Shown: positions 1,460 through 26,080 of the stretch, piece after piece
How positions within the stretch are numbered: position 1 is the first letter of the stretch
Layout of the letters: every line of letters starts with the position of its first letter
Assembly (NCBI RefSeq): GCF_018398935.1
Contig: NZ_CP074694.1
Coordinates: 6,560,642-6,592,641 of the forward strand
Direction of reading: 5' to 3'
Length of the DNA: 32,000 nucleotides
From: Telmatocola sphagniphila
GTDB lineage: Bacteria; Planctomycetota; Planctomycetia; Gemmatales; Gemmataceae
Made by a program: the position numbers and the translations under genes
The notes under the pieces: model-generated
The model's database searches: none
What the model saw: only the letters and a program-made list of their open reading frames with translations
Told to the model about the DNA's origin: nothing

Positions 1460-3415
1460 TTACGTCGTGGCGTCTTCCAGGTAGGTGTAGCCTTCCATCC
1501 CACTCTCGTAAAATCGCATGAATTGTCGCGATTCCTTGACGGAAATCTTCCCCTGCTTCAGCGCCCTTTCCACATCTTTTCGCATCCGCTCGATCAATTT
1601 TTCGGCCGAGTACTGCACGTAATGCAGCACTTCGCGAACCGTGTCGCCCTTGATGACTTCGTCGATGTTGACCTCGCCATTTTCCTCCAGGTAGACGTGC
1701 ACGGCATTGGTATCGCCAAGCAAATTGTGCAAATCGCCGAGGATTTCCTGATAAGCGCCAATCAGAAACGCCCCGAGATAATAGGGCTCGCCATCGGTCA
1801 GGGGATGCAAAGGCAGCGTGCCGGAGACATCGCGAAGATCGATGAACTGATCGATCTTACCGTCCGAATCGCAGGTGATATCTCCAAGCACCGCCCGGCG
1901 GCTCGGTGCTTCATTCAGACGATGGATCGGCATGACCGGGAATAGCTGCTTGATCGCCCAGCTATCGGGCATCGATTGGAATACGCTGAAATTGCAGAAG
2001 TAGGTATCGGAAAGCTGCACATCCAAACCTTGCAGATCTTCCGGGACGTGGTCCAGTTCCTTCACCAGTTTTTGCAGTTTCTTGCCGACGGCCCAGAAAA
2101 GCCGTTCCGCCATGGCCCGGAGTTCGATGCTCAGGTAGCCGAGTTGAAAGAGATTGAGTGTCTCCTCCATCGCCTGCTGAGCGTCGTGATAGCTTTCCAG
2201 AAAGTTCTTTTTGTTGATATCGCTGTAGATGCCATAGAGATCCTTGATCGGCTGCGGGGCATCGTCGGGAATTTCGCTGGGGGCCGTGCAGCGATCGAAG
2301 TTGGATGTACCCAGCACATCGAAGATCAGCACGCTATGGTAAGCCACCATTGCCCGGCCCGATTCGGAAATGATCGTCGGGTGAGGGATGCCGCTCTCAT
2401 CGCAGACGCTCTTGATGCGGAACACCACATCGTTGGCGTATTCTTGCAGAGTGTAATTGACGCTCGATTCAAAATCGGTCTGCGAGCCATCGTAGTCGAC
2501 CCCCAAGCCGCCGCCGACGTCCATGAATTTTAAACCGGCGCCGCAGCGATAGAGTTCAACGTAGACGCGCGCCGCTTCGTTCAGAGCGTCTTTCACCTTG
2601 CGAATGTTGGTGATCTGACTCCCCAGATGGAAGTGGGTCATCTGAAGGCAATCGGCCATGTCCCGTTCTTTGAGATAATCGAGCGCTTCCAGAACTTCGG
2701 TGATGGTGAGACCGAATTTGCTGCGATAACCCGCCGAAGATTTCCAGCGGCCACTGCCCCGGCTGGCGAGCTTGACGCGTACGCCAATGACCGGCCGAAC
2801 GTCCAGTTCCTGAGCGTGCCGTACAATCGATTCCAGCTCGGTGAATTTTTCGACGACCGGGATGATGTTCTTGCCAAGCTTGCGGGCCAGGATCACCATC
2901 TTGATGAATTCATCGTCCTTGAAGCCATTACAAATGATCGGCGTGTCCGAACCATTGGTAATCGCCAGCACGGCCAGCAATTCCGGCTTGGAACCGGCCT
3001 CCAGACCGAACTGGTAGGGTTTGCCGAAGTCGAGGATTTCTTCGACCACCTGTCGCTGCTGATTCACCTTGATGGGATAAACGCAGCAGTAGTCGCCCGA
3101 GTAGTCGTACTCCTTGATGGCGTTGGAAAAGGCCTTGGCCAGTTCCGCCACGCGATGTCGGAGAATATCGGTGAAGCGAAGCAGAATAGGAGTTTGAATA
3201 TCGCGATCGATCAACTGATCGACAAGTTGCTTCAAATCGATCGATTCATCGGTTCTTTTATTGGGATGCACGGTCACATGACCGGCTTTGTTGATTCCGA
3301 AGTAGCCTTTGCCCCAGCCTCGGACGGCATATGTATCGAGCGAATCGGCATTTTTCCACTGACGTATAGTTTCCGGGTCGTCGTGACGCTCCAGCGCTTT
3401 GGCCATCAAAGGCAC
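1460..3415 (-). CDS. speA: biosynthetic arginine decarboxylase
   Basis: 651-aa ORF. The N-terminus (...YAVRGWGKGYFGINKAGHVTVHP...), the PLP-fold barrel motifs (YPIKVNQQRQVVEEI, HFHLGSQI) and the C-terminal ...LGDITCDSDGKID... match the SpeA family architecture. Confidence 0.92.
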   Translation of the reverse strand: MPLMAKALERHDDPETIRQWKNADSLDTYAVRGWGKGYFGINKAGHVTVHPNKRTDESIDLKQLVDQLIDRDIQTPILLRFTDILRHRVAELAKAFSNAIKEYDYSGDYCCVYPIKVNQQRQVVEEILDFGKPYQFGLEAGSKPELLAVLAITNGSDTPIICNGFKDDEFIKMVILARKLGKNIIPVVEKFTELESIVRHAQELDVRPVIGVRVKLASRGSGRWKSSAGYRSKFGLTITEVLEALDYLKERDMADCLQMTHFHLGSQITNIRKVKDALNEAARVYVELYRCGAGLKFMDVGGGLGVDYDGSQTDFESSVNYTLQEYANDVVFRIKSVCDESGIPHPTIISESGRAMVAYHSVLIFDVLGTSNFDRCTAPSEIPDDAPQPIKDLYGIYSDINKKNFLESYHDAQQAMEETLNLFQLGYLSIELRAMAERLFWAVGKKLQKLVKELDHVPEDLQGLDVQLSDTYFCNFSVFQSMPDSWAIKQLFPVMPIHRLNEAPSRRAVLGDITCDSDGKIDQFIDLRDVSGTLPLHPLTDGEPYYLGAFLIGAYQEILGDLHNLLGDTNAVHVYLEENGEVNIDEVIKGDTVREVLHYVQYSAEKLIERMRKDVERALKQGKISVKESRQFMRFYESGMEGYTYLEDATT

Positions 3416-9748: not shown

Positions 9749-11017
9749 TTGGGTATCATACCCAAATTCGGCATGGAGGCCGCAATGTCCAAGAAGCTCC
9801 CCCAACTCCGATTACACCGTCCGTCCGGCCAGTATTACTGGTGGAATGGCCAACTCAAAAGACGAATCCACTGCGGCCTCATCAAGGCCGAAGCGGAGAA
9901 GAAATACCATCGAGACATGGTTCGTTATGCCGAGAGGCTAGTCTCGCCCCAGCCCCTCGAACAATCACTCACTCGCTTGGATGATCCGACCGTCGCCCAG
10001 GCCCTGGCGGCTTACGTGCGACATGCTCAGGGATACTACTCTCACGACAAAAGGACTCAATCCCGGATCAGCCAAGCGACGCAGGCGGTCGTCGAGCTCT
10101 ATGGAGATCTTCCCGCTCGGGAGTTTCGCGCCAAGCATCTCAAAGCAGTTCGCGCTTACCTGGTCGATACGCGTAAAGAACGAAGGGAGCATCTGAAGTC
10201 CCGCAAGCCTCGACCTTTGTCGCGTCGTTATATCAATCACCTGGTCGCGGCCATCCGAGCTGCCTGGCGTTGGCTGGGAGTGGAAGAAATCATTCCCGAT
10301 GAAGCCGCCACGAGCGTGATGCTCGTCAGCGATCTCTCCGAAGGCAGAGGCGGTGTCGAGCGGGGCCGTGTGATGCCCGTTCCTGGTTGGGTCGTCGAAG
10401 CCACGCTGCACTTCTGTAACCCTGTGATCGCCGCCATGATTCGCGTGCAGCTTCTGCTCGGATGTCGGCCTTCGGAAATAGCTCGCCTCAAAAGGGGAGA
10501 TCTCTCGACGTCGGTCACCGAGCTCGTGAAAGTTCCCCGCTCGAATGAGACGATTCGGGCCAGAGTGGTCAACGATCAGCTGATCTGGCTCGGAGTGCCG
10601 GGATCTCACAAAACGATCCGACTCGGCAAATTGAGAGTGCTCGCCTTTGGACCCCAAGCTCAAGAAATCCTAAAACCTTTCCTCGATCGCAATCCGGAGG
10701 AGTATCTGTTCTCGACGATTGAAGGGGGCCAGCGCGGGCCTAGAAAAGGTAAAGGGTTCTACGAGACTTCGACGTACGGCCAGGCGGTAATGCGTGCTGT
10801 CCTGCGGGCCAACGAAGTGAGAGCCAAGGAACAACTGCCACTCATTCCCCACTGGACTCCGAATCAGTTAAGGCACAGTCGCGCTACCGAGATCGTGGAA
10901 AGGTTTGACGAATCCCACGCGACGGCCGCACTCGGCCATTCCTCGCCCAGGATGCTCAGCGTCTACGCCGAACAGGCGATCGGCAAGGCTATCGAGGTCG
11001 CGCGTCTGGCGGGCTAG
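9749..11017 (+). CDS. tyrosine recombinase / phage integrase
   Basis: The C-terminal catalytic region contains ...LLLGCRPSEIARL..., HWTPNQLRHSRATEI and LGHSSPRMLSVYAE (R..H-x-x-R..Y signature). The true start is probably ATG 9773 or 9785 (MSKKLPQL...), not the TTG at 9749. Confidence 0.9.
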   Translation: MGIIPKFGMEAAMSKKLPQLRLHRPSGQYYWWNGQLKRRIHCGLIKAEAEKKYHRDMVRYAERLVSPQPLEQSLTRLDDPTVAQALAAYVRHAQGYYSHDKRTQSRISQATQAVVELYGDLPAREFRAKHLKAVRAYLVDTRKERREHLKSRKPRPLSRRYINHLVAAIRAAWRWLGVEEIIPDEAATSVMLVSDLSEGRGGVERGRVMPVPGWVVEATLHFCNPVIAAMIRVQLLLGCRPSEIARLKRGDLSTSVTELVKVPRSNETIRARVVNDQLIWLGVPGSHKTIRLGKLRVLAFGPQAQEILKPFLDRNPEEYLFSTIEGGQRGPRKGKGFYETSTYGQAVMRAVLRANEVRAKEQLPLIPHWTPNQLRHSRATEIVERFDESHATAALGHSSPRMLSVYAEQAIGKAIEVARLAG

Positions 11018-11071: not shown

Positions 11072-11497
11072 TCAAACTAAACCATATCGCATTCGGGTGT
11101 ATTCGAACGCCTCGTCGATCCAGTCCTCAAACCCTTCTGGAAGATCTGGGCTGGTCAGCATGATGCAGCCTTTTGATAATTGCGACTCCTGATCCTCTTT
11201 GCTGCGTTCCATCTTCAACCGTTGGAGCGGGCCGTTTGCTGTAATGAAGCGACTATCGGGTCTGACTCGCAGCTCCCATAACAGAGCATCGCCTCTTGGC
11301 TCAAAAATTGAGAGTATGTGCTTTCTGTCTGAGTTGGGATTCTCCCAACCAACTCGGACTTCTTGAATAGTCGAATTTCTGGGAAAATCGACACCGTAAA
11401 GGCCTGCACCATGTCGGCAAAGATGTGGGAGAAGTCGCGAGGCAATAAATATTAATTGCGGATTCCAGTTGGAAAACAAAAAGAAGTTCTCGTTCAC
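11072..11497 (-). CDS. hypothetical protein (integrase-adjacent, opposite strand, lower GC)
   Basis: 141-aa ORF in a lower-GC stretch (about 11.04-11.65 kb) flanked by AT-rich spacers. I recognise no motifs. Confidence 0.5.
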   Translation of the reverse strand: MNENFFLFSNWNPQLIFIASRLLPHLCRHGAGLYGVDFPRNSTIQEVRVGWENPNSDRKHILSIFEPRGDALLWELRVRPDSRFITANGPLQRLKMERSKEDQESQLSKGCIMLTSPDLPEGFEDWIDEAFEYTRMRYGLV

Positions 11498-12546: not shown

Positions 12547-12909
12547 ATGGACGAGGAAAGAGAAATGACGCGAGACGAGCAACAAGAGATGACTCGACGC
12601 CTGAAAAGGGAAGGATTGATCCGACCGAATACCGCCGCCCAGTTCGCGGAAGTCGAGCCCGCGGTGATCTGGCGATGGATCGTCAAAGGAGTTCGCGGAG
12701 TAAAGCTCGAAGCCACCCAGGGACCAGGTAACGGCTGGTTCACATCGAAGGAAGCCATCCTCCGATTCTTCGCGGCCCGATCTTCGATCGAGCGCACCCG
12801 ACTCAGCCAGGCGGAATCGCCCACCCGAAAGCAGGCGGCGAAAGGGTTGACGGAATTCCAGGAAGCGATCGCCGGATTGCGAGCCGCAAAAACGAAAGTC
12901 GCCCAATGA
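12547..12909 (+). CDS. small HTH DNA-binding protein (excisionase/AlpA-like guess)
   Basis: From ATG 12547: MDEEREMTRDEQ...NTAAQFAEVEPAVIWRWIVKGVRGVKLEA...WFTSKEAILRFF, an HTH_17/MerR-like pattern. The stop overlaps the next start as ATGA (12906-12909). Confidence 0.45.
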   Translation: MDEEREMTRDEQQEMTRRLKREGLIRPNTAAQFAEVEPAVIWRWIVKGVRGVKLEATQGPGNGWFTSKEAILRFFAARSSIERTRLSQAESPTRKQAAKGLTEFQEAIAGLRAAKTKVAQ

Positions 12910-14212
12910 AAATCGTCGAACGCCTGATCGCATCGATCAAGCCCTATGAGAAGAACCCTCGGATCAACGACGGAGCCATTGAAGCCGTTGCGAAATCGAT
13001 CCAGGAGTTTGGCTTCCAGCAACCGATCGTCGTCGACACCAAGGGCGTGATCATCGTCGGTCACACCCGGTATCGGGCCGCTCTGCAGCTCGGGCTGAAG
13101 AAGATCCCGGTGCACGTCGCCGCCGGATTGACTCCCGCCCAGGTGCGGGCCTACCGGATCACCGACAATCAGACCTCGACGCTTTCTTCCTGGGATGAAG
13201 AGAAGCTGATCGTGGAGCTGATGGCCCTGCAGAAGCTCGACTTCGATCTCGATCTCACCGGCTTCTCCGCTTCACAGCTGGCCGACTTCTTTGCGACCGA
13301 AGCGAAGCCTGGCCTGACCGATCCCGATGACGTGCCCGCTCCGCCCGATGCGGCGAAGACGAAGCCTGGCCAGATCTGGATCCTCGGTAATCACCGGCTG
13401 ATGTGCGGTGACTCCTCCAAGCCTGAGGACCTCGACCAGCTCCTGGCTGGCGAGCCGATCCACCTGGTCCACACCGACCCGCCTTACAACGTGAAGGTTG
13501 AACCGCGAAGCAACAACGCGATCGCGGCGGGGCTGTCGTCTTTCAAAGCGACCCATCACCAGGGCTTCGACGTGAGCCGGAATCCGGGGAAGGCGAAGGG
13601 CACGACGAAGAAACTGCGTGCGAAGGATCGACCACTGGCCAACGACTATGTGAGCGATGAGGCCTTCGATCGACTGCTGCAGGCCTGGTTCGGCAATTTC
13701 TCTCGAGCTCTGCAGCCAGGTCGATGCTTCTACCTCTGGGGCGGGTACGTCAACTGTGCGAATTACCCGGGAGCGATCAAATCGAACGGGCTCTATTTCT
13801 CGCAAGCGATCATCTGGGTTAAGGACCATCCCGTTCTCACCCGGAAAGATTTCATGGGGGATCATGAGTGGTGCTTCTACGGCTGGAAACAGGGGCGGGT
13901 CACAAGTTCTTTGGACCGAATAACGCTCGCGATGTCTGGTCAGTGAAGAAGGTCAGCTCCGCCAAGATGGTACACCTCACCGAGAAACCAGTCGAGCTCG
14001 CGACCCGCTCGATCGAGTACTCGTCGAAGCCCGGCGAGAACGTGCTGGATTTATTCGGAGGGTCCGGATCCACGCTGATCGCGGCCGAGCAGACCGGCCG
14101 GCGGGCGTACCTGATGGAGCTCGACGCGCTCTACTGCGATGTGATCGTCGAGCGGTGGGAGAAGTTTACCGGGAAGAAGGCGAAGCTCAGTCCCGCCAAC
14201 AAGAAGAAATAG
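12906..14212 (+). CDS. ParB-like nuclease domain / DNA methyltransferase fusion (N6A/N4C beta-class), interrupted by a 1-nt frame disruption (possible pseudogene or assembly error)
   Basis: ParB-N motifs (YEKNPRIND...IIVGHTRYRAA). DPPYN catalytic motif at ...LVHTDPPYNV. The AdoMet motif LDLFGGSGSTLIAAE is found only in the second ORF (13868-14212). The frames join as ...CFYGWKQG/AGHKFFGPN... at the G-run 13892-13895. Confidence 0.8.
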
Positions 14213-14227
14213 CGCGACTTAATCGAT

Positions 14228-14245
14228 GTGCAGCCTGTGCTGCAC
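14228..14245. terminator. candidate bidirectional hairpin between convergent genes
   Basis: GTGCAGC-CTGT-GCTGCAC (7-bp stem, 4-nt loop) followed by TTGAGATCTTT. It lies between the methyltransferase stop (14212) and the stop of the minus-strand gene (14273). The U-tract is weak. Confidence 0.35.
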
Positions 14246-14272: not shown

Positions 14273-14944
14273 TTACGAATCGCGGTTACGAATTCCGCAG
14301 TGAGGACAGCGCTTCAAATTTTTTAGTCTGAGGTGACCGCAGTCTTTACAAGACGCTAGTGGTCCCAACGGCCTGGCGGAAGCGTACACCCACCATCCAA
14401 GGGCTGCATTCACATTCACCAGAATGAAGATCCAAAACATCTCAATGCCAAAAAGTCCCCGACTGCGAGCATCTCGAAGTGTAATTCTTAACAATACTAT
14501 TTTCATAAATATCGCTGCCGACAGAAATATGAGCAGCAGTAGACTCTGCGCAATAGAAGCATGCCGATCGAATTTGTTAATGATTTGATTTCGAAGATCG
14601 TGGAAGTTCCAGTAACTGCACCAAAAAATGATTTCTATAACTATATCCGCGATGAGAAATCCAAGTGATGGATCGGCATTTAACAAGTTATTAAATCTGG
14701 AGCCTGTTATTAATTTTGCGTTTTGAACCGCCTCCGCATAATCCTCTTGCTTCGCACCGTGAATATCGGGATCGAAGCTGATCTCGACTGGCTCCTTTTT
14801 GATCGGAGCATATACGATTCCAACGCCATCCACCGCGGGAATAACAAGTTCCGTTCCGCACTTGGGGCATTCAGAAATTCGACCAATCTTGTGATTAGGG
14901 GACTTTAGCGATGCATCGCATTTTGGGCATGTGAATTGAATCAT
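14273..14944 (-). CDS. membrane protein with N- and C-terminal zinc ribbons (co-transcribed with the repressor; exclusion candidate)
   Basis: 223 aa. N-terminal CPKC...CPKC ribbon, three hydrophobic helices (LGFLIADIVIEIIFWCSYW; SLLLLIFLSAAIFMKIVLL; MFWIFILVNVNAALGWWVYA) and a C-terminal CKDC...CPHC ribbon. GC is markedly low. It starts 33 nt downstream of the XRE gene stop on the same strand. Confidence 0.7.
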   Translation of the reverse strand: MIQFTCPKCDASLKSPNHKIGRISECPKCGTELVIPAVDGVGIVYAPIKKEPVEISFDPDIHGAKQEDYAEAVQNAKLITGSRFNNLLNADPSLGFLIADIVIEIIFWCSYWNFHDLRNQIINKFDRHASIAQSLLLLIFLSAAIFMKIVLLRITLRDARSRGLFGIEMFWIFILVNVNAALGWWVYASARPLGPLASCKDCGHLRLKNLKRCPHCGIRNRDS

Positions 14945-14976
14945 GGCTCAGATTTGAGCTTGGGAGCCCAACTCAG

Positions 14977-15306
14977 TCAAGAGGATTTTTCTTCCGAGGA
15001 TGTTCCCTCGTCGTCTTTATTCGGATCCTTTGAGCGTGGACGACCTTTAGCCGGCACACCAGGATCGGTCGTCGGATCGGCGAATAGCAGCTCAACAGGG
15101 ACACCCAGGGCTTCTGCGAGCTTTTTCACTGCGGTCGCCTTGGGCTCTTTTTCGCCCCGCAACCACTCAGAAATACTGGATTGACGGAAGCCCGATCGCC
15201 TGGCGATCTCGGCGCCGCTTACTCCCTTTTCGTGGAAAAGCTCTCGTAGCCGCTGGGCAAATTGCCCGGGGGTCACGGGATCAAAGACTTTCTCAAGAAG
15301 TAACAA
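14977..15306 (-). CDS. XRE/Cro-CI family HTH repressor (putative prophage immunity repressor)
   Basis: QFAQRLRELFHEKGVSGAEIARRSGFRQSSISEWLRGEKEPKATAVKKLAEALGVPVELLF is a classic HTH_3 domain. The gene is divergent from the early operon, with operator-like repeats in the spacer. The start is TTG (15304-15306) or downstream of it. Confidence 0.8.
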   Translation of the reverse strand: MLLLEKVFDPVTPGQFAQRLRELFHEKGVSGAEIARRSGFRQSSISEWLRGEKEPKATAVKKLAEALGVPVELLFADPTTDPGVPAKGRPRSKDPNKDDEGTSSEEKSS

Positions 15307-15325: not shown

Positions 15326-15370
15326 ATATCGCGAACGCGATTTATTTATTGACTATATATCGCGAACGCG
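15326..15370. promoter_or_regulatory. two perfect 14-bp direct repeats ATATCGCGAACGCG (15326-15339 and 15357-15370): candidate operators
   Basis: Exact repeat with a 31-bp period (about three helical turns) in the divergent repressor/early-gene spacer. The second copy fills the spacer of the rightward promoter. The first copy is embedded in the imperfect palindrome TAAATATCGCGAACGCGATTTA. Confidence 0.6.
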
Positions 15371-15377
15371 TTATTAT
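15349..15377 (+). promoter_or_regulatory. sigma70-like rightward early promoter (PR-like)
   Basis: TTGACT (15349-15354), 17-nt spacer, TATTAT (15372-15377). It points toward the early/replication operon. Confidence 0.55.
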
Positions 15378-15572
15378 ACCTCTGTCGAATGAGTTCCGCC
15401 AAGAATTTTCGACAAAGGCCTCGGGAGCCACCCCAATCATAGCACCGCAAACATCGTCGCGGTACGGGATTCGGACCTCTCGATGGCCAATTTGATCTTC
15501 GCGTAACGATTGAGCACGATCCGCCGCCACTCCCGGATTTGCCGATTGTAACACCCGCATTCTTGAACTAGG

Positions 15573-15929: not shown

Positions 15930-16154
15930 ATGAGCACGGAATTGGATCAACGCACCGCATTGGTGGTCACGATCAGCATCGAAGAGCCCCTCTGGATCGG
16001 AGCCGATGTCGAGCTCCAGGTAGTCTCCGTCCAGGGAGAAAAGGTCATGGTGCGAGTGGTCGCACCTCCTGAAGTGTCCGTCGATCGAGCCTCGATCCGG
16101 GCGAGGAAACTCGCCGCCCAATCAAGCCCCGCCCTCGGCCGCCGTGGCCGATAG
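15930..16154 (+). CDS. csrA: CsrA-like RNA-binding regulator (phage-encoded)
   Basis: LVVTISIEEPLWIGADVELQVVSVQGEKVMVRVVAPPEVSVDRASI aligns without gaps to E. coli CsrA [46 protein letters not shown], with about 20/46 identical by eye. The APxEVSVxR segment is conserved. The RR of region 1 is replaced by IS. There is a 9-aa N-terminal extension. Confidence 0.7.
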   Translation: MSTELDQRTALVVTISIEEPLWIGADVELQVVSVQGEKVMVRVVAPPEVSVDRASIRARKLAAQSSPALGRRGR

Positions 16155-24142: not shown

Positions 24143-25174
24143 ATGAGCGACAGTAGCTTTTATGAGCGATTAGAAAATATCGCCACTTCCAAGCAACTAC
24201 ATCAGATACTCAGAGATCTCAAAAAGGACCATCCTAAGGAAATACAAGTCACTGGGCCAAAAAGTGATCTTGTCCAGAGACTACGGCGCGCTGTAGATGA
24301 CGGGCTTATTCCAATTACAGAAGTTCGTTCATTGCTTCACGAATGCGAAGAAAATGGCCATCAGCATATCTGGTACTATCTGCCAAACTCTGGATCTTTG
24401 AGTTTTTGTAAAAATTTCAAACGATTCGCTAGCCAGTTCGAGGTAAAGAATGAAGTAGATCTTAGCGACTTTCCGAAATTTAAGGTGACACGGGGCAAAC
24501 TGGAATGGGCTGATTTCAGGGAAGAAGAGATTTCCAAGCAAGATAAAGCTGGTAAATGGACGATTAAATTTTACGGCCATGAGGATCGCCACCAATGGGA
24601 TTCTCCACCTATAATTAAAGGCAACACAATAACCCAGCACGGAAAAGTAGTCGACGATTACTACACTGCGGTAGTGAGATGGAATCCGCCTGACATTTTG
24701 GAACTCCGACTCACAATCACGCATAGCAGGGCCAAGTTGCTAGCAAGGCTAGAAGCCATTTGGCAAAAGCTAAGTTTTGGAATTAAGTTTGCAGATTGTA
24801 CTCCGTGGGATCTTTCTGAAGCGAGAAACAATCTTTTTGCGTCTCGTGGCGTTAACTCCAAACGGTACCAAATTTGCACGACTACTATCATAGATCCAAG
24901 CTCAGGAAGTACGTCGTTCTCGCCACGCGACAGCGCAGAGCTTTTAGAAGATGAAAGGGTTAGAGCAGATGCTGTCAAACTTTTTGAACAGAATGGGTGT
25001 AAGCCATCTACGTTCGCAGTGAACTGGTTGGATTTGCCTAATAAAGAACAAACTGAGCTAAGAACGATTATTACCCCTCGTCTTACTCACAATAACGAAA
25101 TCGTGATTACGTCAAAAACTTCTTCTAGTACCGTAGATTATGTCACGCGTGAACTTCGAAAATTTAGCTCATAA
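24143..25174 (+). CDS. cassette gene A: hypothetical protein with SAP-like N-terminal motif
   Basis: 343 aa, low GC. The N-terminus ...SKQLHQILRDLKKDHPKEIQVTGPKSDLVQRLRRAV resembles the SAP helix-extended-helix motif (G.K..L+.RL). The remaining roughly 290 aa have no motif I recognise. Confidence 0.65.
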   Translation: MSDSSFYERLENIATSKQLHQILRDLKKDHPKEIQVTGPKSDLVQRLRRAVDDGLIPITEVRSLLHECEENGHQHIWYYLPNSGSLSFCKNFKRFASQFEVKNEVDLSDFPKFKVTRGKLEWADFREEEISKQDKAGKWTIKFYGHEDRHQWDSPPIIKGNTITQHGKVVDDYYTAVVRWNPPDILELRLTITHSRAKLLARLEAIWQKLSFGIKFADCTPWDLSEARNNLFASRGVNSKRYQICTTTIIDPSSGSTSFSPRDSAELLEDERVRADAVKLFEQNGCKPSTFAVNWLDLPNKEQTELRTIITPRLTHNNEIVITSKTSSSTVDYVTRELRKFSS

Positions 25175-25496
25175 GAAGCCTGAACTCGCCAGCGTTTTCC
25201 GTGAGCTTCAAGCTTGGGTTGATCGCCATCCAAGGACGAATTTTTTGGAGGGTGTTCGACTGACGAAAGAAATGCCTGACTTGGCTATTTCTGATTTGTA
25301 TGCGGCTCTGCTCCTTAGTGTCGAGAGCGGGCTAACTCATCGAGTATTCAAGTTTCGGGACCCTCACGGTCAGCTACTTGATGATGACTTTGAAACGTTG
25401 GATAAAATCCCTGAAACTTTTCCGGATCGCCTACATCAACATTATTATCGACGTGAGGATTGTGATCTGATCTCCGGCTACAAGCTTGAGGGGTAA
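25140..25496 (+). CDS. cassette gene B: hypothetical small protein
   Basis: 118 aa. It overlaps gene A by 35 nt, and its stop overlaps the gene C start (TAATG). An alternative later start exists at 25272. Confidence 0.55.
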   Translation: MSRVNFENLAHKKPELASVFRELQAWVDRHPRTNFLEGVRLTKEMPDLAISDLYAALLLSVESGLTHRVFKFRDPHGQLLDDDFETLDKIPETFPDRLHQHYYRREDCDLISGYKLEG

Positions 25497-26080
25497 TGGA
25501 AGAGTTCCAATTTCCATTCCCTGTACACCTACCTGATGAAATGCACTGTTTCGTCAGAAATTTTCGCGATGCCCTCAGGAACGGAGCAAATCCGTTCACT
25601 CTCAAATTTGATCTAACATCAGAAGCTAGTAAAATGTTTGGTGTTACTTTTTCTCATGACTTCCTGGAAATTCTCTCTCATTTTGAACGGGGTAACATCG
25701 TGGTCAACAACTCAGGATCAGGAAACGTTTCGGTTCAAAAAGCTGGCGGCTCGATGGTAGGAGTCGTTGGCGCAGGCGCGACGGCAGAATTTGGAGACAT
25801 CAATGCTTTTTGTACTTGGATTAAAGACAGTGAAGTGAATGCTGATCTGAAGTCTGCAATTCTTGGCGGTCGAGATGAAATTAATCGTGAAGTAAAAGAC
25901 CCAGAAGAAAAGGAAGCGGTTCTCGAAGCGTACAAGAAACTCGCCGAAGAAGCTGTGAAACAACAGCCTAAACCGAGCGTGTTGAAGACAGCTTGGGGGG
26001 CGATAAAATCGATATTAAGTTTGGGAGAAGCAGTTCCCTGCCTGGTCAAGTTAGGAGAACATCTAGGCTTGCCAATTTAA
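25496..26080 (+). CDS. cassette gene C: hypothetical protein with a Gly-rich segment and a hydrophobic/amphipathic C-terminal tail
   Basis: 194 aa. NNSGSGNVSVQKAGGSMVGVVGAGATAEFGD, then a charged helix (DPEEKEAVLEAYKKLAEEAVKQ), then KTAWGAIKSILSLGEAVPCLVKLGEHLGLPI. Confidence 0.6.
   Translation: MEEFQFPFPVHLPDEMHCFVRNFRDALRNGANPFTLKFDLTSEASKMFGVTFSHDFLEILSHFERGNIVVNNSGSGNVSVQKAGGSMVGVVGAGATAEFGDINAFCTWIKDSEVNADLKSAILGGRDEINREVKDPEEKEAVLEAYKKLAEEAVKQQPKPSVLKTAWGAIKSILSLGEAVPCLVKLGEHLGLPI

Follow-up and report, generated by a model that had tools for sequence, protein, structure and literature searches.

Which gene does a planctomycete prophage keep directly behind its repressor, and what might the product of that gene do there? 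The question arises in a 32,000-nucleotide (nt) stretch of DNA from Telmatocola sphagniphila (NCBI RefSeq assembly GCF_018398935.1, contig NZ_CP074694.1; hereafter the window), in which two minus-strand open reading frames (ORFs)—one for an XRE-family repressor and one for an integral membrane protein of 223 amino acids (aa), here called the target—sit between a DNA methylase gene and the early genes of a prophage. The original prediction for this locus had described these two same-strand frames as an immunity repressor and a membrane protein with two zinc ribbons, and we recovered both ORFs exactly where it had placed them (Table 1). Based on profile comparisons, we assign the target to a family that combines a PLDc_N (PF13396) two-helix hairpin with a C-terminal Cys4 ribbon, a family from which the target has diverged. 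As to its role, we tentatively favor the reading that it is a lysogeny-module moron, i.e., a captured and diverged cellular membrane protein that would be co-transcribed with the repressor, would span the membrane with its N-terminus inside and its C-terminus outside, and would most probably serve in superinfection exclusion.

Protein architecture and family membership

A word-indexed search across 5.8 billion clusters returned only the target itself, and the orphan status that this suggested was overturned by an exhaustive phmmer search of 1.84 billion representatives, which recovered 611 relatives at E ≤ 1e-3. The matches fall into two modules: target residues 2-37 align with zinc ribbons, often repeated in multi-ribbon proteins, and residues from about 131 to 217 align with the C-terminal part of many 80-260-aa proteins. 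An alignment of 18 relatives contains 13 invariant columns (D158, R162, G183, Y187, R191, P192, G194, L196, C199, C202, P214, H215 and C216), with W171 and C213 nearly invariant, and a larger alignment of 120 sequences contains ten (R162, W171, G183, R191, G194, C199, C202, C213, P214 and C216), with H215 nearly invariant.

PF13396 is matched by 12 of the 18 aligned relatives and by most of the best 120 of 236 profile-search matches, and its gathering score of 23.3 bits is exceeded by P0066 (29.3 bits), P0030 (25.5 bits) and P0024 (26.3 bits), the last of which has the full architecture of the target. The transmembrane (TM) region of the target itself does not reach this gathering score and has no Pfam match even at E ≤ 10. 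When aligned by hhalign to a family profile built from four short members—all matching PF13396, two of them (P0066 and P0030) above the cut-off—target residues 132-222 gave a probability of 98.3% (E = 2e-14). The PF13396 matches of its relatives, together with this alignment to their profile, indicate that the target is a diverged member of the same family, with statistically secure homology. Directly after its second hairpin helix, the target also carries the motif of the Cys4-ribbon subfamily, R-P-x-G-x-L-x-x-C-x-x-C-(x10)-C-P-H-C (R191-C216), and it has in common with the family a hairpin with a D-A-x-x-R-G loop, followed by W, G-x-x-x-Y, R-P-x-G-x-L and then C-x-x-C...C-P-H-C. The original reading, which had recognised no named family for the protein, gives way to membership in a PLDc_N and zinc-ribbon group, albeit one for which literature searches with PLDc_N or PF13396 found no functional study; the subfamily is unnamed, and sources label it 'PLDc N-terminal domain-containing protein'.

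We additionally counted architectures among the 193 matches that carry the core motif. The hairpin and ribbon stand by themselves (2 TM) in 72 of these, one extra N-terminal hydrophobic segment without an N-terminal ribbon is found in 79 (3 TM), and 36 resemble the target in joining one or two N-terminal ribbons to 3 TM, such that at least 36 proteins have the full succession of N ribbon, TM, hairpin and C ribbon. P0002 (44%), which lacks the N ribbon, is the only relative among about 15 billion proteins to be more than 40% identical to the target. Both proteins deviate at nearly invariant family positions (W154I, A156L, D165F/H and N204H/C), and the substitutions that they have in common point to a diverged, apparently mobile branch. 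The P0002 gene (L004:191-685) is itself a low-GC insert (GC, guanine plus cytosine; GC3, the same at third codon positions) in a 1.1-kb metagenomic contig, with GC of 56% vs. 69.5% in its flanks and GC3 of 70% vs. 95%, suggesting that the diverged branch moves horizontally. Its neighbours on the contig have no PHROG or Pfam match, and a metagenome scan for the closest clade gave spurious out-of-frame matches only.

The target itself runs from an N-terminal zinc ribbon through a linker to TM1, a PLDc_N-like TM2-loop-TM3 hairpin and a C-terminal Cys4 ribbon. Both CxxC..CxxC ribbons of the original prediction are present (C6/C9/C26/C29 and C199/C202/C213/C216), and the two cysteine motifs are kept in homologues, which argues that they are not there by chance. 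The three TM helices that it had proposed agree with three hydrophobic segments (residues about 94-112, 131-153 and 166-188) and with three helices in the AlphaFold model (92-122, 130-161 and 167-190). TM1 is only moderately hydrophobic in the target, with D98 and E102 inside it, and clearly hydrophobic in relatives of the same architecture. The conserved hairpin loop reads L-R-D158-A-R-S-R162-G163, followed by W171, G183, Y187, R191 and P192. No enzymatic or catalytic domain was found in the protein, nor a partner gene beside it.

Modeled with the 120-sequence alignment, the target reached a predicted local distance difference test score (pLDDT) of 76.6 overall, with 93 in the N ribbon, 80-90 in the hairpin, 88-90 in the C ribbon and a disordered linker over residues 40-90; the single-sequence model was poor (pLDDT 57). 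For the N ribbon, Foldseek returned LysW with a probability of 1.0 and the ZitP zinc finger with 0.92, the Pfam match to Zn_ribbon_LysW was sub-threshold (7.4e-5), and the family profile matched LysW (3.4e-5), ZitP (2nb9, 0.005) and GltJ/AgmX (7zok, 0.0058). The likeness to these proteins lies in the fold of the N-terminal 35 residues and covers the ribbon only, with E-values that are marginal owing to the tiny domain. ZitP and GltJ carry the ribbon ahead of a membrane anchor, as a cytoplasmic module that binds proteins. The structure searches proposed in the original prediction thus gave counterparts for the ribbons and none for the membrane core, as Foldseek against PDB and BFVD matched small ribbons only and no solved or viral structure over the core.

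If there are three TM helices, the two ribbons fall on opposite faces of the membrane, and the original suggestion that both are cytoplasmic then fails. We consider the following path probable, with some reserve: the N ribbon would be cytoplasmic, TM1 would lead out and TM2 back in, the basic R-D-A-x-x-R-G loop would lie inside, and TM3 would lead out again to a periplasmic C ribbon. Containing a folded ribbon and lacking a signal peptide, the N-terminal domain of 88-93 residues is expected to remain cytoplasmic. In the 79 three-TM relatives without ribbons, the first hydrophobic segment starts at median residue 6, and several of them (P0051, P0054, P0064, P0129 and P0135) have clear signal peptides. 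In the 2-TM members, the N-tails are acidic and contain few K/R, as translocated tails should. Many signal-peptide members (such as P0051, P0059, P0072 and L003:5815-6222) also carry an extra conserved CxxC, with consensus AAAGCxxCG, just before the first hairpin helix. This motif falls on the membrane side of the C-terminal Cys4 ribbon, so that one face would hold six cysteines, which could form a metal or redox site.

The switch region and its transcription unit

The repressor scores above Pfam cut-offs for HTH_31 (1.5e-12) and HTH_3 (3.4e-12) and also matches PHROG transcriptional-repressor families. It has no S24/LexA-type peptidase domain and ends in a charged, low-complexity tail (…KGRPRSKDPNKDDEGTSSEEKSS); lacking the peptidase, it must be induced by a route that bypasses RecA-stimulated self-cleavage. 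Upstream of the gene, a 17-nt direct repeat is present twice, 31 bp apart, and its core is the palindrome ATCGCGAACGCGAT. At up to two mismatches, this palindrome has four matches in the window vs. 0.64 expected, and the two best are the copies at the switch, one perfect and one (ATCGCGAACGCGTT) with a single mismatch. The only sigma-70-like promoter matches between positions 14000 and 16200 form a divergent, face-to-face pair (15349-15402) whose -10 hexamers overlap. In gene order, the integrase lies to the left, followed further on by the target and the repressor and then by oppositely oriented early genes, the rightward side of the switch holding an 85-102-aa ORF without matches, a CsrA-like gene and the replication genes. 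An HTH repressor with divergent overlapping promoters and two operator copies facing the early genes is the anatomy of an immunity region of the CI/PRM-PR type, and we read the XRE gene as the repressor of the prophage switch, as the original prediction had done.

Transcription from the leftward promoter would cover the repressor gene and extend by read-through into the target gene. The gap between the two genes, originally given as 33 nt, is indeed short and measures 32 nt; it holds a weak hairpin (z = -0.74, not significant). A sequence scan found no promoter-like or terminator-like site in this gap or in the target gene, and co-transcription is for that reason the simplest reading of the pair. 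A single terminator-like match lies on the opposite strand, inside the repressor gene, and the operon may end at a GC-rich hairpin in the convergent intergenic region beyond the target, a non-canonical structure for a terminator with z-scores that are not significant.

In composition, the target gene is foreign to the phage, as expected of a moron. Its GC is 44.6% (the original prediction had estimated about 42% from spot counts and rightly called it low) and its GC3 is 45.1%, vs. 65-81% GC3 in neighbouring phage genes (integrase, methylase, CsrA, phrog_10048 and replication genes), and 400-nt intervals over the region dip to 41-46% GC. The repressor gene is intermediate at 55.5% GC, and its GC3 of 54.5% is also atypical and well below the rest of the phage, which suggests that repressor and target travel as one cassette.

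Comparison with known systems and proposed role

A moron downstream of a repressor is a layout of a well-known kind. In phage lambda, two genes downstream of cI, rexA and rexB, encode the sensor RexA and the four-TM protein RexB, and in the lysogen both are transcribed from the maintenance promoter, something that for the target is inferred only. The lambda and Telmatocola loci agree in that the repressor gene is followed directly by one or more extra same-strand genes, which include one for a multi-pass membrane protein; they differ in that the target is a single gene, has no RexA-like sensor, has three rather than four TM helices and has no Pfam or PHROG match to Rex. Of the cI-rex-like layout proposed originally, the position downstream of the repressor stands and the sensor/channel pair does not, and we take the Rex analogy to be one of layout only.

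Single membrane-associated superinfection exclusion (Sie) proteins include lactococcal Sie2009, HK97 gp15, P22 SieA and T4 Imm. Together with Ltp, these are small membrane-associated proteins of the integrase/repressor region, and the target resembles them in location and membrane character, with expression in the lysogen again inferred. They have no sequence or fold similarity to the target, and Ltp is a lipoprotein. The Ltp gene of Streptococcus thermophilus TP-J34 belongs to the lysogeny module and is documented to be transcribed in the prophage state (PMC3952083). A PLDc_N-domain gene, CJE1442, is part of an alternative repressor cassette (CJE1439-CJE1442) in the Campylobacter jejuni prophage CJIE4 (PMC3995785). 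By description, this cassette is alike in joining a PLDc_N-domain hypothetical protein to a CI-like repressor within an exchangeable unit, but it also carries a nuclease, its repressor has an S24 domain, and its PLDc_N product was undetected by proteomics (PMC3995785).

We propose, conditionally, the following course of events. A cellular inner-membrane protein gene of the PLDc_N hairpin and Cys4 ribbon type, in its three-TM version with an added N-terminal ZitP/LysW-like zinc ribbon, would have been captured by the prophage and would have diverged strongly. The leftward switch promoter would transcribe it together with the repressor, such that the target would be made in the lysogen. Action by stoichiometric binding of something at the cytoplasmic membrane appears most likely, because the protein lacks both a catalytic domain and a partner gene, and the target might in this way interfere with the entry of incoming phage genomes or with steps of infection at the membrane, as is the case for Sie2009, HK97 gp15, T4 Imm and Ltp. 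Superinfection exclusion is more likely than a two-component abortive system of the Rex type. PADLOC-DB 2.0 contains no family that matches the target at E ≤ 0.1, and homology to a holin, which the original prediction had named as incompatible with its reading, was found in neither PHROG nor Pfam, for a gene that lies in the lysogeny module. Given that no homology to Rex, Sie, abortive-infection (Abi), holin or PADLOC models was detected, a defence role, if there is one, would belong to a new protein family. We considered and rejected readings as a holin, a Rex system or a toxin-antitoxin system.

Several observations weigh against this proposal, among them the genomic settings of the relatives. 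A search with one exact motif alone found the core group in 172 GTDB species, mostly Acidobacteriota but also Planctomycetota, Verrucomicrobiota, Gemmatimonadota and others, and members of the cellular core family (about 80-140 aa) from several phyla are 64-85% identical. Of the 78 locatable loci, 72 have yidD directly behind the core-group gene and in the same orientation, at a fixed distance of 171-174 nt between the core ribbon and the YidD motif (loci L005-L084, with the identity of yidD confirmed by Pfam), and in L003:5815-6527 the two genes overlap by 25 nt; no earlier description of the linkage was found. Relatives that have the full architecture (P0152, P0156, P0153 and P0256) are located mostly among ordinary chromosomal genes. 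Taken together, the yidD linkage and the chromosomal settings speak for a cellular role in membrane biogenesis or homeostasis rather than in immunity. The target departs from this pattern, as it is prophage-borne, adjoins a repressor instead of yidD, has a convergent methylase gene as its downstream neighbour and deviates at several of the nearly invariant positions. Phage sequence collections also count against the proposal: a tblastn search of 50,697 deposited phage genomes with the target and a typical family member found no match, and phages related through the neighbouring 378-aa phrog_10048-like replication-region gene are without the repressor/target cassette. Furthermore, PHROGs and PADLOC contain no known Sie, Abi or other defence protein similar to the target, BFVD holds no structural analogue among viral proteins, the very basic C-terminal tail (8 K/R vs. 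2 D/E; family mean about 5 K/R) conflicts with a periplasmic site under the positive-inside rule, and co-transcription is read only from missing consensus signals, although the promoters of the host may differ from the sigma-70 type.

A megablast search with the phage region found no match, neither the repressor nor the 378-aa protein had a close relative in scans of IMG/VR, and the one family match in IMG/VR lies beside a prophage and next to yidD, so that it is probably host flank. Only P0158 adjoins a ParE/XRE toxin-antitoxin pair and mobile-element-like genes; the recurrence of the same repressor-plus-membrane pair in other prophages, as envisaged in the original prediction, was not found, the relatives with readable surroundings being mostly chromosomal apart from this one.

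It is possible, though doubtful, that a yidD-linked cellular membrane protein with ribbons on both membrane faces has been re-tooled by the prophage into a single-gene immunity factor representing a new Sie or Abi family. A lysogenic-conversion or host-physiology factor with no part in defence, in which the phage copy would do, or interfere with, what its cellular relatives do and would benefit the lysogen or later phage development, seems to us rather unlikely. It draws on the operon-like association of the core family with yidD in Acidobacteriota, Planctomycetota, Verrucomicrobiota and Gemmatimonadota, on the chromosomal settings of same-architecture relatives and on the retention of all family invariants in the phage copy; the role of the relatives would probably have to do with membrane-protein insertion or the lipid interface, considering the tight yidD linkage and a hairpin common to cardiolipin synthases. 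The yidD linkage is lost in the window, however, the departures of the target and P0002 from nearly invariant positions fit a changed function, and the end of an immunity operon is a typical position for exclusion genes. An abortive-infection effector like RexB, AbiP or PdpSau, whose N ribbon would sense a phage product and whose three-helix core would oligomerise, depolarise the membrane and kill the cell, we judge distinctly unlikely: the position downstream of the repressor is that of rexAB, the membrane core is joined to a ribbon of a cytoplasmic protein-binding type, and a single membrane-anchored prophage Abi protein has precedent (PMC10127798), but the target has neither a RexA-like partner nor homology to RexB or any Abi model, at most one of its ribbons can be cytoplasmic, and an intrinsically toxic pore is unlikely given the conserved cellular relatives.

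The remaining explanations carry less weight. That the target regulates the switch, as a membrane-tethered partner whose cytoplasmic ribbon would bind or sequester the repressor, or which would pass envelope signals on to it, is improbable; such a partner would suit a 109-aa repressor without a peptidase domain, two genes of atypical composition that look as if inherited together and a ribbon resembling protein-protein interaction ribbons, yet the target has no protease or other signalling domain, we found no precedent, and the relatives are unlinked to XRE genes except for the one toxin-antitoxin neighbour. Equally hard to credit, and if anything quite improbable, is a functionless passenger, a recently acquired fragment carried along or decaying. 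Its foreign composition would fit, as would the split methylase gene, which suggests some decay in the prophage, whereas the intact 223-codon ORF, a start that aligns with the starts of homologues, and the retention of each residue that is invariant in the family and of all eight ribbon cysteines do not. Three TM segments and a basic C-terminus recall class I holins, but a holin or lysis-timing protein is highly improbable for a gene in the lysogeny module, on the repressor strand and far from lysis genes, with no PHROG holin match and with homology to conserved cellular proteins, and a constitutive holin would be lethal in a lysogen.

As it stands, the target is a typical unannotated lysogeny-module moron in an ordinary layout. 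If it does exclude phages, an unrelated family would join the few membrane exclusion factors that consist of one gene, in a phylum with almost unexplored phage biology, and an immunity role would provide the first functional handle on the PLDc_N/zinc-ribbon family and the first defence gene described for a planctomycete prophage. Independent of defence, the gene is tied to a large, cross-phylum conserved family without described function that is almost always found directly upstream of yidD, and the diverged phage-borne copy offers a natural entry point for genetics on the PLDc_N/Cys4 family.

Other features of the prophage

The prophage starts with the tyrosine integrase gene, and host flank precedes it in the window (Table 1). 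The sub-threshold DUF1580 match, the DUF7133/HEAT protein of the flank and the taxonomy of the relatives by themselves point to a planctomycete as the probable host.

Table 1. Features of the 32,000-nt window, with positions counted from its first letter.
Feature	Position	Strand	Remarks
Arginine decarboxylase	1460-3415		host flank
DUF58 protein			host flank
1453-aa DUF7133/HEAT/GDSL protein			host flank
Tyrosine integrase	9749-11017		first prophage gene
141-aa ORF	11072-11497	-	GC 48%; between integrase and excisionase-like gene
DUF1580/excisionase-like gene			prophage; DUF1580 match sub-threshold
ParB-N6/N4 DNA methylase	12906-13946 and 13868-14212		prophage; overlapping ORFs in different frames; adjoins target gene region and convergent to target gene
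7-bp GC-rich hairpin	14228-14245		stem GUGCAGC/GCUGCAC; convergent intergenic region between target gene and methylase
Target gene, 223-aa integral membrane protein	14273-14944	-	starts MIQFTCPKC
C-terminal Cys4 ribbon	14294-14359	-	aa 196-217; C199KDC202...C213PHC216
PLDc_N-like two-helix hairpin	14372-14554	-	aa 131-191; from invariant columns and hhalign
TM1	14609-14665	-	aa 94-112; from hydropathy, alignment and predicted helix 92-122
N-terminal zinc ribbon, LysW/ZitP type	14843-14941	-	aa 2-34; C6PKC9...C26PKC29
Intercistronic gap, 32 nt	14945-14976	-	weak hairpin, no U tract
CI-like XRE/HTH_3 repressor, 109 aa	14977-15306	-	Pfam HTH_31 and HTH_3, PHROG repressor families
Terminator-like match	14995-15010	+	inside repressor gene
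Operator copy 1 (predicted)	15328-15341		perfect palindrome; repressor leader, upstream of rightward promoter -35
Rightward PR-like early promoter (predicted)	15349-15377	+	TTGACT, 17-nt spacer, TATTAT
Operator copy 2 (predicted)	15359-15372		one mismatch; rightward-promoter spacer, predicted leftward transcript start
Leftward PRM-like promoter (predicted)	15373-15402	-	TTGGCG, 18-nt spacer, TATAAT; 10/12 consensus matches
CsrA-like RNA-binding regulator gene	15930-16154		among first rightward early genes
Replication initiator, primase/helicase, clamp			prophage replication genes
Low-GC island, three ORFs	24143-26080	+	343, 118 and 194 aa
Mu-F-like head protein			prophage gene

The two methylase ORFs align with successive stretches of phrog_498 (profile positions 33-332 and 323-431), and the split is a frameshift that may reflect a pseudogene, a sequencing error or recoding. 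The CsrA-like gene has a counterpart at the same relative position in a related phage contig (L087:6091-6309), where it lies upstream of a phrog_10048-like gene. The 141-aa minus-strand ORF has zero matches in Pfam, PHROGs, NCBIfam and PADLOC.

We also observed a second low-GC island, between the replication and packaging modules, with GC of 43-46% vs. about 61% in its flanks. Its three plus-strand ORFs have no Pfam, PHROG or NCBIfam match, and the third of them weakly matches the PADLOC candidate defence protein PDC-M14B (3e-8); this island may be a second moron or defence cassette.

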